Positions 29,964 to 62,620 of a stretch of DNA of 64,000 nucleotides are shown here, piece after piece; the first letter of the stretch is position 1, and the number at the start of each line of letters is the position of its first letter. The notes beneath the pieces are model-generated. The model made no database searches and was not told where the DNA came from. It saw only the letters and a list, made by a program, of their open reading frames with translations. A program made the translations under genes and the position numbers. This stretch comes from Octopus vulgaris (Eukaryota): positions 7,378,001 to 7,442,000 of the forward strand of contig OX597818.1 in the NCBI GenBank assembly GCA_951406725.2, written 5' to 3'.

Positions 29964-30058
29964 CTCTCTCTTTTCTCTCTTTTACTTGTTTCAGTCATTT
30001 GACTGCGGCCATGCTGGAGCACCGCTTTTAGCCGAGCAACTCGACCCCGGGACTTATT
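29962..30058 (-). mobile_element. SINE family A 3' fragment
   Basis: Nearly identical to 31312-31408. Confidence 0.8.
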
Positions 30059-30073
30059 CGAACTTCATTTTTT

Positions 30074-30132
<59 letters not shown>

Positions 30133-30155
30133 AGACAGTTTTTGCTAGAATCTAG

Positions 30156-30205
30156 CAAAAACTGTCTGATGAACGGAAACGAGAAACTCAGAGTAACAGA
30201 TTTTG
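30156..30205 (+). ncRNA. Minimal type I hammerhead ribozyme candidate
   Basis: caaaaactgt CTGATGA a-cg-gaaa-cg-a GAAA ctcagag TA acagattttg. Stem I ctgt/acag plus caaaa/ttttg; stem II CG-GAAA-CG closed by an A.A mismatch; stem III ACUCAGAGU; GUA cleavage after 30195. Confidence 0.7.
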
Positions 30206-30310
30206 TTGAATTTTCTGGTGCTTTAAATAAAGCATATTACTCTACCACTGGTATTTGAGTACTCTTTTTTTTCCACCTTGTTTCACATTTATGTTTACTC
30301 CGGTATACAT

Positions 30311-30422
<112 letters not shown>

Positions 30423-30515
30423 CGGGAAGCTTTATGAAAATAGACAAAAGACGAAGGCAGGTGGAAAACAAACAAACAATTGTATTAGTATGGCGCTCAA
30501 ATATATATACATATG

Positions 30516-31221
30516 TATATGTGTATATTGGCAGGGCTGGCCTGCTAGGTAGCCGGCCAGAATGCTAGAAATAGATCATCAACGATCAAACTACAAGGGA
30601 AATTCTCTAGAGGAAGACTACTGGTTTTAAATTGATATTAACATTAATATTAATTTATCTCCCTCAATTTTTAAATATTTAAATAAATACGTTCCCTAGT
30701 AGTAAGCTTTACCCGCAGTGAATTATTCACTGCAGCCCTTCGCTTCAGGAGTCTCTTAGCGCGCCGGAACCAAGACATTTGAAATTTTATCCCCGATGTA
30801 ATCAGTAAGACTAAGCACGTGTCTGTCTTGACACAGAGAGCTGGGGTCAGTCTTGCGGTTTGCATCTCGAGGACCGAATGTACTGAAGAAGTCACGGACA
30901 CTTGAATTATGCAAGTAATTCTTTTGTTAAGACCGAAACCGAGGTATGCATTTAAGTCTGTTTTTTATTTAATTTTTCATATGTCCTGCCCGCCAAATTT
31001 GGTTCTGGTGTTCGCTGAATTCTTCCTCTAGAGAATTTCCCTTGTAGTTTGATCGTTGATGATCTATTTCTAGCATTCTGGCCGGCTACCTAGCAGGCCA
31101 GCCCTGCCAATATACACATATATTTGAATTTTCTCTGACTCCTCAGATTTTTTGAATGCTGGACTACTGGTTTTAAATTGATATTAAAATTAATATTAAT
31201 TTATCTCCCTCAATTTTTAAA
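30516..31221 (+). mobile_element. Retrozyme-like / Penelope pLTR-like element: inverted 5' arm plus ~1.1 units of a 546 bp monomer
   Basis: 30516-30617 is the reverse complement of 31021-31122. gactactggttttaaattgatattaa...ctccctcaatttttaa repeats at 30616 and 31162. Contains a hammerhead; bounded by TA-rich microsatellite. Confidence 0.8.
30871..30959 (+). ncRNA. Type I hammerhead ribozyme with extended stem II
   Basis: aatgta CTGAAGA a-gtc...gac-c GAAA ccgagg TA tgcatt. Stem I AAUGUA/UGCAUU; stem II GUC/GAC with inner acttg/caagt; stem III ACCGAGGU; GUA cleavage after 30946. Confidence 0.75.
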
Positions 31222-31252
31222 TTTTATATACATATGTATATATATATATATT

Positions 31253-31731: not shown

Positions 31732-31773
<42 letters not shown>

Positions 31774-31776
<3 letters not shown>

Positions 31777-32039
31777 AATATAAGAGAGTGGTCACTATAT
31801 TGCTCACTCTAGCACCAGTTAATCCAAAAGGTTTCAACCACGAAAATACATGCTTACCATGAAAGTCAGTACGATTGTTAGCTCACAGGACAGGGCAAAT
31901 AAAAAATAACAAAAATACAGATTATTTTGGGACAATTGTTTCGCTATTAATGAATTAAATGTAATTTTACTTACAAAAAAAATCCATTTGTAGCTCGTCA
32001 GCCAAGACTATCTGGATGAAATCCACTCAATCACACGCC
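31774..32039 (-). repeat. Inverted partial copy (266 bp) of the 536 bp monomer
   Basis: Near-exact reverse complement of 32193-32458 (one base deleted near 31888; the poly-T run is one base longer than in unit 1). Joins the forward array through a cc microhomology. Confidence 0.95.
31918..32014 (-). ncRNA. Type I hammerhead ribozyme (inverted copy)
   Basis: Reverse complement of the array hammerhead with all core nucleotides intact. Confidence 0.85.
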
Positions 32040-32217
32040 CTTATTAATTAATTATAATTATGCTGCATTTATTTCTAAATGCTGTATTTGTTTTCCGTGA
32101 AAGTTTGGCGCGCTGTTGGTTGGGGCATTTGAATTATAACGTCGGATGTAATCAATTGAACCACACGCGTATTTATCGTTATGGTAAAATCTGGCGTGTG
32201 ATTGAGTGGATTTCATC

Positions 32218-32313
32218 CAGATAGTCTTGGCTGACGAGCTACAAATGGATTTTTTTGTAAGTAAAATTACATTTAATTCATTAATAGCGAAACAATTGTC
32301 CCAAAATAATCTG
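32218..32313 (+). ncRNA. Type I hammerhead ribozyme, unit 1
   Basis: cagatagtcttgg CTGACGA gcta...tagc GAAA caattg TC ccaaaataatctg. Stem I UUGG/CCAA, internal loop, then CAGAU/AUCUG; stem II GCUA/UAGC extended; stem III palindrome ACAAUUGU; GUC cleavage after 32300. Confidence 0.9.
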
Positions 32314-32752
32314 TATTTTTGTTATTTTTTATTTGCCCTGTCCGTGTGAGCTAACAATCGTACTGACTTTCATGGTAAGCATGTATTTTCGTGGTTGAAA
32401 CCTTTTGGATTAACTGGTGCTAGAGTGAGCAATATAGTGACCACTCTCTTATATTTATTTTGTAAAAATATTATAATATGTTATAAAATATTATAATAAT
32501 CCAGGTTTCTCGAAGCACTAGGCCACTTGGTGTTGAATAAATATACTATTAAATTAGTATCTAATTCTCTCACCCTTATTAATTAATTATAATTATGCTG
32601 CATTTATTTCTAAATGCTGTATTTGTTTTCCGTGAAAGTTTGGCGCGCTGTTGGTTGGGGCATTTGAATTATAACGTCGGATGTAATCAATTGAACCACA
32701 CGCGTATTTATCGTTATGGTAAAATCTGGCGTGTGATTGAGTGGATTTCATC

Positions 32753-32848
32753 CAGATAGTCTTGGCTGACGAGCTACAAATGGATTTTTTTGTAAGTAAA
32801 ATTACATTTAATTCATTAATAGCGAAACAATTGTCCCAAAATAATCTG
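32753..32848 (+). ncRNA. Type I hammerhead ribozyme, unit 2
   Basis: Same motif; CTGACGA at 32766, cleavage after 32835. Confidence 0.9.
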
Positions 32849-33287
32849 TATTTTTGTTATTTTTTATTTGCCCTGTCCGTGTGAGCTAACAATCGTACTG
32901 ACTTTCATGGTAAGCATGTATTTTCGTGGTTGAAACCTTTTGGATTAACTGGCGCTAGAGTGAGCAATATAGTGACCACTCTCTTATATTTATTTTGTAA
33001 AAATATAATAATATGTTATAAAATATTATAATAATCCAGGTTTCTCGAAGCACTAGGCCACTTGGTGTTGAATAAATATACTATTAAATTAGTATCTAAT
33101 TCTCTCACCCTTATTAATTAATTATAATTATGCTGCATTTATTTCTAAATGCTGTATTTGTTTTCCGTGAAAGTTTGGCGCGCTGTTGGTTGGGGCATTT
33201 GAATTATAACGTCGGATGTAATCAATTGAACCACACGCGTATTTATCGTTATGGTAAAATCTGGCGTGTGATTGAGTGGATTTCATC

Positions 33288-33384
33288 CAGATAGTCTTGG
33301 CTGACGAGCTACAAATGGATTTTTTTTGTAAGTAAAATTACATTTAATTCATTAATAGCGAAACAATTGTCCCAAAATAATCTG
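33288..33384 (+). ncRNA. Type I hammerhead ribozyme, unit 3
   Basis: CTGACGA at 33301, cleavage after 33371. Confidence 0.9.
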
Positions 33385-33823
33385 TATTTTTGTTATTTTT
33401 TATTTGCCCTGTCCGTGTGAGCTAACAATCGTACTGACTTTCATGGTAAGCATGTATTTTCGTGGTTGAAACCTTTTGGATTAACTGGTGCTAGAGTGAG
33501 CAATATAGTGACCACTCTCTTATATTTATTTTGTAAAAATATTATAATATGTTATAAAATATTATAATAATCCAGGTTTCTCGAAGCACTAGGCCACTTG
33601 GTGTTGAATAAATATACTATTAAATTAGTATCTAATTCTCTCACCCTTATTAATTAATTATAATTATGCTGCATTTATTTCTAAATGCTGTATTTGTTTT
33701 CCGTGAAAGTTTGGCGCGCTGTTGGTTGGGGCATTTGAATTATAACGTCGGATGTAATCAATTGAACCACACGCGTATTTATCGTTATGGTAAAATCTGG
33801 CGTGTGATTGAGTGGATTTCATC

Positions 33824-33920
33824 CAGATAGTCTTGGCTGACGAGCTACAAATGGATTTTTTTTGTAAGTAAAATTACATTTAATTCATTAATAGCGAAAC
33901 AATTGTCCCAAAATAATCTG
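33824..33920 (+). ncRNA. Type I hammerhead ribozyme, unit 4
   Basis: CTGACGA at 33837, cleavage after 33907. Confidence 0.9.
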
Positions 33921-34359
33921 TATTTTTGTTATTTTTTATTTGCCCTGTCCGTGTGAGCTAACAATCGTACTGACTTTCATGGTAAGCATGTATTTTCGTG
34001 GTTGAAACCTTTTGGATTAACTGGTGCTAGAGTGAGCAATATAGTGACCACTCTCTTATATTTATTTTGTAAAAATATTATAATATGTTATAAAATATTA
34101 TAATAATCCAGGTTTCTCGAAGCACTAGGCCACTTGGTGTTGAATAAATATACTATTAAATTAGTATCTAATTCTCTCACCCTTATTAATTAATTATAAT
34201 TATGCTGCATTTATTTCTAAATGCTGTATTTGTTTTCCGTGAAAGTTTGGCGCGCTGTTGGTTGGGGCATTTGAATTATAACGTCGGATGTAATCAATTG
34301 AACCACACGCGTATTTATCGTTATGGTAAAATCTGGCGTGTGATTGAGTGGATTTCATC

Positions 34360-34456
34360 CAGATAGTCTTGGCTGACGAGCTACAAATGGATTTTTTTTG
34401 TAAGTAAAATTACATTTAATTCATTAATAGCGAAACAATTGTCCCAAAATAATCTG
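34360..34456 (+). ncRNA. Type I hammerhead ribozyme, unit 5
   Basis: CTGACGA at 34373, cleavage after 34443. Confidence 0.9.
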
Positions 34457-34894
34457 TATTTTTGTTATTTTTTATTTGCCCTGTCCGTGTGAGCTAACAA
34501 TCGTACTGACTTTCATGGTAAGCATGTATTTTCGTGGTTGAAACCTTTTGGATTAACTGGTGCTAGAGTGAGCAATATAGTGACCACTCTCTTATATTTA
34601 TTTTGTAAAAATATAATAATATGTTATAAAATATTATAATAATCCAGGTTTCTCGAAGCACTAGGCCACTTGGTGTTGAATAAATATACTATTAAATTAG
34701 TATCTAATTCTCTCACCTTATTAATTAATTATAATTATGCTGCATTTATTTCTAAATGCTGTATTTGTTTTCCGTGAAAGTTTGGCGCGCTGTTGGTTGG
34801 GGCATTTGAATTATAACGTCGGATGTAATCAATTGAACCACACGCGTATTTATCGTTATGGTAAAATCTGGCGTGTGATTGAGTGGATTTCATC

Positions 34895-34991
34895 CAGATA
34901 GTCTTGGCTGACGAGCTACAAATGGATTTTTTTTGTAAGTAAAATTACATTTAATTCATTAATAGCGAAACAATTGTCCCAAAATAATCTG
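34895..34991 (+). ncRNA. Type I hammerhead ribozyme, unit 6
   Basis: CTGACGA at 34908, cleavage after 34978. Confidence 0.9.
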
Positions 34992-35430
34992 TATTTTTGT
35001 TATTTTTTATTTGCCCTGTCCGTGTGAGCTAACAATCGTACTGACTTTCATGGTAAGCATGTATTTTCGTGGTTGAAACCTTTTGGATTAACTGGTGCTA
35101 GAGTGAGCAATATAGTGACCACTCTCTTATATTTATTTTGTAAAAATATTATAATATGTTATAAAATATTATAATAATCCAGGTTTCTCGAAGCACTAGG
35201 CCACTTGGTGTTGAATAAATATACTATTAAATTAGTATCTAATTCTCTCACCCTTATTAATTAATTATAATTATGCTGCATTTATTTCTAAATGCTGTAT
35301 TTGTTTTCCGTGAAAGTTTGGCGCGCTGTTGGTTGGGGCATTTGAATTATAACGTCGGATGTAATCAATTGAACCACACGCGTATTTATCGTTATGGTAA
35401 AATCTGGCGTGTGATTGAGTGGATTTCATC

Positions 35431-35527
35431 CAGATAGTCTTGGCTGACGAGCTACAAATGGATTTTTTTTGTAAGTAAAATTACATTTAATTCATTAATA
35501 GCGAAACAATTGTCCCAAAATAATCTG
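35431..35527 (+). ncRNA. Type I hammerhead ribozyme, unit 7
   Basis: CTGACGA at 35444, cleavage after 35514. Confidence 0.9.
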
Positions 35528-35966
35528 TATTTTTGTTATTTTTTATTTGCCCTGTCCGTGTGAGCTAACAATCGTACTGACTTTCATGGTAAGCATGTAT
35601 TTTCGTGGTTGAAACCTTTTGGATTAACTGGTGCTAGAGTGAGCAATATAGTGACCACTCTCTTATATTTATTTTGTAAAAATATTATAATATGTTATAA
35701 AATATTATAATAATCCAGGTTTCTCGAAGCACTAGGCCACTTGGTGTTGAATAAATATACTATTAAATTAGTATCTAATTCTCTCACCCTTATTAATTAA
35801 TTATAATTATGCTGCATTTATTTCTAAATGCTGTATTTGTTTTCCGTGAAAGTTTGGCGCGCTGTTGGTTGGGGCATTTGAATTATAACGTCGGATGTAA
35901 TCAATTGAACCACACGCGTATTTATCGTTATGGTAAAATCTGGCGTGTGATTGAGTGGATTTCATC

Positions 35967-36063
35967 CAGATAGTCTTGGCTGACGAGCTACAAATGGATT
36001 TTTTTTGTAAGTAAAATTACATTTAATTCATTAATAGCGAAACAATTGTCCCAAAATAATCTG
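35967..36063 (+). ncRNA. Type I hammerhead ribozyme, unit 8
   Basis: CTGACGA at 35980, cleavage after 36050. Confidence 0.9.
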
Positions 36064-36502
36064 TATTTTTGTTATTTTTTATTTGCCCTGTCCGTGTGAG
36101 CTAACAATCGTACTGACTTTCATGGTAAGCATGTATTTTCGTGGTTGAAACCTTTTGGATTAACTGGTGCTAGAGTGAGCAATATAGTGACCACTCTCTT
36201 ATATTTATTTTGTAAAAATATTATAATATGTTATAAAATATTATAATAATCCAGGTTTCTCGAAGCACTAGGCCACTTGGTGTTGAATAAATATACTATT
36301 AAATTAGTATCTAATTCTCTCACCCTTATTAATTAATTATAATTATGCTGCATTTATTTCTAAATGCTGTATTTGTTTTCCGTGAAAGTTTGGCGCGCTG
36401 TTGGTTGGGGCATTTGAATTATAACGTCGGATGTAATCAATTGAACCACACGCGTATTTATCGTTATGGTAAAATCTGGCGTGTGATTGAGTGGATTTCA
36501 TC

Positions 36503-36599
36503 CAGATAGTCTTGGCTGACGAGCTACAAATGGATTTTTTTTGTAAGTAAAATTACATTTAATTCATTAATAGCGAAACAATTGTCCCAAAATAATCTG
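36503..36599 (+). ncRNA. Type I hammerhead ribozyme, unit 9
   Basis: CTGACGA at 36516, cleavage after 36586. Confidence 0.9.
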
Positions 36600-36868
36600 T
36601 ATTTTTGTTATTTTTTATTTGCCCTGTCCGTGTGAGCTAACAATCGTACTGATTTTCATGGTAAGCATGTATTTTCGTGGTTGAAACCTTTTGGATTAAC
36701 TGGTGCTAGAGTGAGCAATATAGTGACCACTCTCTTATATTTATTTTGTAAAAATATTATAATATGTTATAAAATATTATAATAATCCAGGTTTCTCGAA
36801 GCACTAGGCCACTTGGTGTTGAATAAATATACTATTAAATTAGTATCTAATTCTCTCACCCTTATTAA

Positions 36869-36919
<51 letters not shown>

Positions 36920-61779: not shown

Positions 61780-62316
61780 GTTATTATTATTATTATTATT
61801 ATATATTTATTTATTTATTTATATATATTTTGATTACTCAGTATAGAATTTTAAAAGTTTTTTCATAGATAAATATGTATAGCGCCATTTCATTCATGAC
61901 ATAGTAAGGAATAAATGAATTAAACTAAATCAAAGATTGTACGAAGCGAAGCATTTCTGAAAGATGAGATGTGAAATCTCATCCATTTGAAGAATAATCA
62001 CAACTCTTCAAACGTGGGAACATTTTGAATAGAATTGTTAATGGTGATGCATGTTAAATTTCAAGAGGAAGAGGGGGGAATTTTACATTTGTAGATGTTC
62101 AGTTGACTGTGTTGCTACTCCGGTATTAATACTGATATCAATGAGCATAATGATCATCATCGTAATAGATGCTATTATAAGGGTATTGTAGATGATGGTA
62201 GCAACGGCGATGGTGACGGCAAGAACGACAACATCAATGATACCAATGATGGTGATGAAGACAACAACAATATGTCTGACACACAATTATTACACATACC
62301 CTTGGGATCAAGTGAA

Positions 62317-62620
62317 GGTGCGTAGCTTAGTGGCTAGAGTGTTCGACTCACGATTGTAAGGTCCTGAATTCGAATCTCGGTGGTGCTTTGTGTCCCTTGA
62401 GCAAGACACATTATTTCACGTTACTCCAGTTCACTCAGCTGGCAAAAATGGGTAGTACCTGCATTTCATAGGGTCATCTTTGTCATATATTGTGCTACGC
62501 TGAGTCATTCTAAGAATAACGTTAAGGGTATGCGCGCTGTGGTGGTGGTGTAAGGGTCTTAGCCGCTTGCATGTTAATTTCACAACCAACTAGTATCCTT
62601 GTCGTCGTAACCGACTGAGT
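62317..62620 (+). mobile_element. tRNA-derived SINE family C
   Basis: Homologous to 38553-38845 (gtagcttagtggctaga..ttcgaatc..ccttgagcaagacacattatttcacgtt..ttgcatgttaattt). Confidence 0.75.

Follow-up and report, generated by a model that had tools for sequence, protein, structure and literature searches.

A young family of non-coding hammerhead elements in Octopus vulgaris with the insertion signature of Penelope-like elements

The element at positions 30504-31241 of the window (the whole analysed stretch of 64,000 nucleotides) is a copy of a family with a non-coding 546-nt unit, which is an element of a known kind, a non-LTR retrozyme or a non-autonomous Penelope-like element (PLE). The ends, inverted arms and junctions of 62 insertions of this family reproduce the published signature of PLEs. 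It is therefore probable that a young, dispersed, non-coding retrozyme is inserted in trans by the reverse transcriptase (RT) and GIY-YIG endonuclease of a PLE.

The anatomy described in a first-pass annotation of the window was confirmed. The proposed inverted 5' arm (30516-30617 versus 31021-31122) is 102 nt long and 100% complementary, the "ga" microhomology at its junction was reproduced by exact extension as a 2-nt overlap, and the 546-nt monomer with about 60 nt of the next unit is delimited by a direct repeat (30616-30679 / 31162-31225; 64 nt, 97% identity, spacing 546). A 17-nt target-site duplication (TSD), which the annotation did not contain, is present in identical copies at 30504-30520 and 31225-31241, so that the copy is indeed an independent insertion. 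The parts are as follows, with q denoting the unit position and 30616 being q1.

30504..30520, no strand: left TSD copy (17 nt), an interrupted TA tract; last 5 nt common with the arm end
30516..30617, minus strand: inverted 5'-truncated arm, unit positions 406-507 (100% inverted repeat)
30616..30617, no strand: microhomology (2 nt) between arm and sense copy (exact extension)
30616..31161, plus strand: non-coding 546-nt unit, q1-q546 (repeat comparison; no long reading frame)
31115..31123, plus strand: site L, AU-rich fixed end, ~q500-508 (44 of 110 family 3' ends at q495-520)
31162..31224, plus strand: start of the next unit, which stops at site R, ~q56-66 (52 of 110 family 3' ends at R)
31225..31241, no strand: right TSD copy (17 nt), identical to 30504-30520

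The stretch from L to R forms a tail of about 100 nt. Site L is likely an internal start of reverse transcription, and the arm is likely a cDNA primed at this site from the second target strand. The unit has no protein-coding capacity, the longest stop-free stretches being 41 aa in sense and 97 aa in antisense direction, and no match to a PLE protein was found in the 64-kb window. The copy had been called highly diverged, which is true in comparison with the neighbouring 536-nt family, but not within its own family, in which it differs at 3 of 546 majority positions and is 97-99% identical to many dispersed copies; it is a young copy, ordinary for its family.

The full unit was used to search the genome (2.8 Gb, 227 contigs) and yielded 1247 candidates, 40 of which were scored, with the best matches being 97-99% identical. 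Queries with parts of the unit yielded 1006, 692 and 621 candidates, and thus there are probably hundreds of insertions, dispersed over many contigs. The insertion set comprised 90 loci, which were merged to 62 regions with 110 continuous copies, after one of two duplicated insertions at C14:31.52 Mb had been dropped; because 30 of the 90 loci were picked for full-length matches, this sample is not random and its lengths are biased upward. Of the 110 copies, 96 have their 3' end at one of the two AU-rich sites, which are separated by about 100 nt (R in 52 copies, L in 44; the other 14 end elsewhere), and the ends at these sites join (TA)n, which flanks 53/62 insertions on the left and 60/62 on the right. 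An inverted arm is present in 44 of the 62 insertions and is combined with one R end and one L end in 34 of these 44. TSD candidates were found in 7/62 insertions, about three of them convincing, the others being hidden in pure (TA)n. Seven of the 44 inverted junctions are gapped and three are long fold-backs, which were left out of the microhomology count, and the remaining 34 clean junctions have overlaps of 0-8 nt; the overlap is at least 2 nt in 18 of them (16% expected by chance) and at least 3 nt in 11 (6% by chance). In one insertion (L010, C5:116.718 Mb) the junction gap of 219 nt contains the inverted left host flank.

It should be noted that inversion with microhomology is also the signature of twin priming, and it was counted in favour of mobilisation by a LINE with L1-type twin priming, or of spread at the DNA level; the twin-priming geometry fits two copies. 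However, a poly(A) or 3' repeat tail is absent, L or R alone can end a copy, as in the copies without an arm, most inverted arms overlap the sense copy, and the target and tail pattern match those of PLEs in the same genome, which makes a LINE-type or DNA-level origin improbable. The pattern across the 62 insertions is that of PLEs, for which the accessible parts of two reports (PMC8557442, PMC3846280) describe an inverted 5'-truncated copy and an optional tail of 30-40 bp as typical. A PLE protein has been shown to cut and extend both strands of AT-rich DNA and to start reverse transcription at two internal RNA sites, the spacing of which equals the genomic tail; cleavage was dispensable and the RT start had no homology to the target (PMC11167929), whereas the L and R sites of the 546-nt family resemble the TA target.

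The type I hammerhead motif reported for the unit reads as had been claimed, with a GUA site and cleavage predicted after 30946; its activity is a prediction. Its parts, read from the sequence, are all on the plus strand:

30871..30959, plus strand: type I hammerhead motif with long stem II and near-palindromic short stem III (sequence reading, descriptor null)
30877-30882 / 30947-30952, plus strand: stem I
30883-30889, plus strand: core CUGAAGA
30890-30934, plus strand: stem II region, 45 nt
30935-30938, plus strand: GAAA
30938-30945, plus strand: stem III, ACCGAGGU

The hammerhead descriptor matched in 0 of 20000 dinucleotide shuffles of the unit, and the identical motif is present in 70 loci. 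A hammerhead was absent from the Rfam results at the gathering score and also at E up to 10, and the isolated motif does not fold more stably than its shuffles (z 0.69 and -0.47). For the predicted circular monomer, folding gave a z of -3.8, with 1 of 40 shuffles being equally good. Position 10.1-11.1 is an A.C mismatch instead of the usual G-C pair, and an older copy (L103) has A-U. By analogy with the hammerheads described in PMC4209133, the mismatch and the weak stem III would suggest low or dimer-dependent activity; the available part of a 2026 preprint (10.64898/2026.07.22.740005) describes 8 of 9 tested Xenopus retrozyme dimers as uncleaved. As the window copy has one hammerhead only, it probably arose as a product and does not itself give rise to circles, while 18/62 insertions have at least two complete hammerheads, as judged by length.

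The annotation had attributed the length of slightly more than one unit to reverse transcription around a circular or tandem template. This argument is not supported, because the lengths of the copies form a continuum that reaches 2137 nt (median 505); a length of 1.1 units is no evidence of a circle and simply marks where the cDNA stopped. The circularly permuted multimers that it had led one to expect were found in part: multimers occur, in arrays of up to 3.9 units joined head to tail seamlessly, and the 5' starts vary, but the 3' ends are fixed and not permuted. A fixed difference between tail and body, which would have excluded a circle, was considered and rejected; the C at q27 is private to the window copy.

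Within insertions, six subfamily markers agreed in 54 of 54 comparisons. In addition, 14 insertion-private variants in 10 insertions are present in every covering unit, across registers; of the other private variants with like coverage, 71 are confined to a single unit (a misaligned palindrome accounts for about 17 of these) and 2 are carried by some of the units. Same-direction units diverge by 0.56%, arm and body by 0.81% and insertions from one another by 1.76%, with segments below 90% identity and segment ends left out of the comparison. This uniformity fits the repeated copying of one monomer, but is no proof of a circle. A copy at C12:86.93 Mb starts at q227 and its units still share a private variant, and thus shared variants can also derive from a source array that was already uniform. 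The cleavage site is crossed by 86 of 110 copies, with 3 stops in 117 passes, and therefore the templates were ligated or uncut; the pile-up of 5' ends at this site is not significant (3/110, P 0.08). A second accumulation of 5' ends was found upstream:

30842..30843, plus strand: 5'-end hotspot at q227/228 (9 of 110 5' ends at q225-229)

The nine ends compare with 1.0 expected (best-window null, P 0.0002) and are all compatible with a hard end at q227, which is located 104 nt upstream of the cleavage site. The hotspot may be a transcription start or a structural or strong RT stop, and suggests that some templates were linear. Nevertheless, 93 of 102 passes continue through q227 and 9 stop, so that this end is missing from most templates, in agreement with circles or long read-through RNA. 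Another apparent hotspot at q1-7 was rejected as partly an effect of selection and of BLAST boundaries; it shrank from 10 to 7 ends after correction, and in the subset not picked for full length 2/60 5' ends fall there.

The annotation also regarded the neighbouring element as a member of a sister family that was inserted by the same mechanism. This view stands because aligned homology is combined with the same architecture of two ends and arms: a collinear alignment anchored on the ribozyme has 62% identity over 479 columns, with 0 of 200 composition-preserving block shuffles reaching its score, and in the 536-nt family, too, copies end at two sites, and inverted arms are present in most of the 20 regions examined. 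BLAST detects only a 29-nt shared motif (E 0.72), which lies at nearly equal distance from the hammerhead core in both families, with its conserved part lying 48 nt upstream of the hotspot:

30776..30804, plus strand: 29-nt motif common to the 536-nt family, a candidate promoter element

An snRNA-type promoter (PSE) was considered but not supported, since ATCAGT stands at about -60 to -54 in the U2 genes, whereas in the unit it is found at -43 to -37 relative to the hotspot. The 536-nt family has 1498 candidates genome-wide, and its neighbouring copy (31753-36875) contains nine sense hammerheads and one in the inverted arm. This arm ends at the base equivalent to q227, and two TA-joined copies of the family start there, although each TA-joined pattern search returned two copies and was carried out without a control at other positions.

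These results bear on the question whether the same PLE-type insertion used linear, uncut read-through templates only, with a nearly inactive hammerhead and with arrays that grow and are homogenised at the DNA level by unequal crossing-over and conversion. The q227 hotspot and its equivalents in the arm and the two TA-joined copies of the neighbouring family, the A.C mismatch in stem II and the non-significant stops at the cleavage site would all agree with exclusively linear templates, and unprocessed RNA was the main substrate in PMC11167929. However, only 9 of 102 passes stop at q227, multi-unit haplotypes are uniform in 10 separate insertions, including inverted arms of more than three units, and the hammerhead is kept between families that are 62% alike, the sole recurrent core variant falling at the variable N7 position (q272, 8 insertions). 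Exclusively linear templates thus appear rather unlikely, and the sequence data put the chance that a circle was a frequent template slightly above even.

The genome contains a candidate source of the enzyme in at least two young PLE families. Their intact frames of 781 and 775 aa are 47% identical to each other and contain GIY-YIG above the cut-off and RVT_1 just under it (E about 1e-6). Both also carry a CxxC linker, which, by the description in the accessible text of PMC8557442, would indicate the Neptune or Nematis type. Their copies terminate in (TA)n at two sites with a spacing of about 30-40 nt, and their divergence of 1.5% (8 ORFs) and 0.6% (24 EN stretches) indicates an age similar to that of the retrozyme family (1.8%). 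Upstream, each of the two families also contains a separate ORF of about 450-480 codons (the one that was scanned had no match in Pfam), and the 775-aa family forms tandems of 4271 bp. The pLTRs of autonomous families carry hammerhead-like motifs, read by eye, each with a palindromic stem III and an altered core (U3-A8 in the 781-aa and L046 families, A3-U8 in L051, U4C in the 775-aa family).

One further explanation is that the unit is a solo pseudo-LTR (pLTR) of an autonomous PLE, left behind after 5' truncation. It would share its end structure and hammerhead with pLTRs, as far as these are described in the available part of PMC4209133, and PLE families were only partly sampled (150 of 6136 GIY-YIG candidates scored). 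In contrast to this expectation, units are joined head to tail seamlessly, and a unit contiguous with an ORF occurred in none of the 62 regions and 30 further loci; the three PLE pieces found nearby are separated by 190-560 nt from the copy, whose own start is at a TA tract. A search for an autonomous parent with DNA queries from three parts of the unit and with PLE protein queries was also unsuccessful, since it returned PLE families, but neither a unit-ORF junction nor pLTR homology. The unit had no homology to the pLTR regions of five families (the two young and three older ones; z -0.5 to 0.9), and in a second comparison 119 of 300 shuffles scored as well as the unit. Fixed ends next to an RT ORF had been named as the mark of a plain solo pLTR; the family departs from this form, with multimers, variable 5' starts and no RT ORF next to any of the copies. 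Descent as a solo pLTR is thus very improbable. As the five PLE families compared lack detectable homology to the unit, the mobiliser is inferred from architecture, target and age and not from sequence.

Insertion in trans by a PLE would proceed as follows. The endonuclease would place one nick in each strand of a (TA)n tract, at a distance of about 12-17 nt, and each free end would prime reverse transcription at L or R, two AU-rich internal RNA sites about 100 nt apart. Both cDNAs would extend back over a single template haplotype, end at differing points and be joined head to head through short microhomology, yielding the inverted arm. The template would probably often be a circular monomer, produced by hammerhead cleavage of loci with two ribozymes and subsequent ligation, while a minority of templates could be linear primary transcripts starting near 30842. 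The points against this model include the missing homology to the five PLE families, the lack of the conserved G10.1-C11.1 pair in the ribozyme, the uncleaved Xenopus dimers, the resemblance of L and R to the target, the q227 hotspot and the L/R tail of about 100 nt versus the published 30-40. The full version, in which a Neptune-type PLE enzyme repeatedly copies a non-homologous, ribozyme-made circRNA from both nicked TA strands with starts 100 nt apart, is put forward tentatively, at somewhat less than an even chance. If this is true, the step from circRNA to genome that has been hypothesised for animal retrozymes would gain direct evidence, and a ready pair of substrate and enzyme would be at hand for testing it.

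Several other elements are located in the window and in the flanks of the insertions. The next TA tract contains, at 30130-30310, a third hammerhead element, which is small and has a short 5' arm of the fold-back type (core at 30166, minimal stem II, stem III ACUCAGAGU, GUA at 30193-30195; an 89% relative in L035). A truncated copy of a common short repeat is directly followed, at 30057-30092, by a very short 3'-terminal piece of the 781-aa PLE family, after which comes (TA)n. The minus strand at 30952-30986 is similar to sequence that flanks some U2 snRNA genes on the 3' side (80% over 35 nt, E 0.006 versus 15 loci), possibly by chance, and a weak tRNA-like Rfam match at 62316-62388 (30.7 bits) is probably a tRNA-derived short repeat. 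The flanks contain about eight more families of type I hammerheads with long stem II (L014, L017, L024, L034, L039, L066, L069, L100, L103, L119), and thus the genome is rich in such elements. In other copies of the unit, G-to-T at q240 (30855; 12 insertions) and G-to-A at q242 (30857; 15 insertions) mostly occur together, and the units of an insertion disagree at q240 in 10 of 10 testable cases, which is true of none of the subfamily markers.

Published work already covers non-LTR retrozymes with their circular RNAs, as well as the proposal that PLEs mobilise them (PMC7229834 and PMC4209133, in their accessible parts). Mobilisation via circular RNA is a hypothesis in the available discussion of PMC7229834, and the bioRxiv preprint 10.64898/2026.07.22.740005, in the portion available, supports it with co-occurrence and pLTR homology and leaves the mechanism open. 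Like the metazoan non-LTR retrozymes of these two sources, as far as their accessible text describes them, the family consists of non-coding repeats, tandem or monomeric, which carry a type I hammerhead, are poor in GC and lack LTR, PBS and PPT, and it co-occurs with PLEs; its 546 nt are within the 51-972 bp range of the preprint, and the TSD of the window copy exceeds the 4 bp used to define retrozymes. It differs from the described retrozymes by its 45-nt stem II region with basal A.C and by the absence of a homologous parent pLTR among the five PLE families compared, and it is known from genomic sequence, whereas circular RNAs of retrozymes are published. In the openly accessible main texts, no inverted arms, two fixed ends or microhomology junctions were found for retrozyme insertions, and no cephalopod retrozyme was found in the same range of texts; this absence argues weakly for novelty.

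The resemblance to EN+ PLEs of the Neptune/Nematis type (PMC11167929, PMC3846280, PMC8557442, PMC4209133, as far as available) includes the two internal starts, the optional tail, the inverted 5'-truncated copy, the AT-rich or microsatellite target, the TSD and a hammerhead with palindromic stem III. In contrast to these elements, the 546-nt family has no ORF for RT and GIY-YIG between pLTRs, a tail of about 100 instead of 30-40 nt and no similarity to the sampled autonomous families. Chlamys elements such as MRC1, in the accessible account of PMC8557442, are likewise non-autonomous PLE derivatives with multicopy head-to-tail insertions, but their 3' end is generally similar to that of the autonomous partner, and canonical hammerheads are absent from their clade. 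The present family unites the PLE integration signature on a young retrozyme with single-haplotype multimers, and since the same genome contains intact, recently active PLE ORFs, the mechanism has become directly testable.
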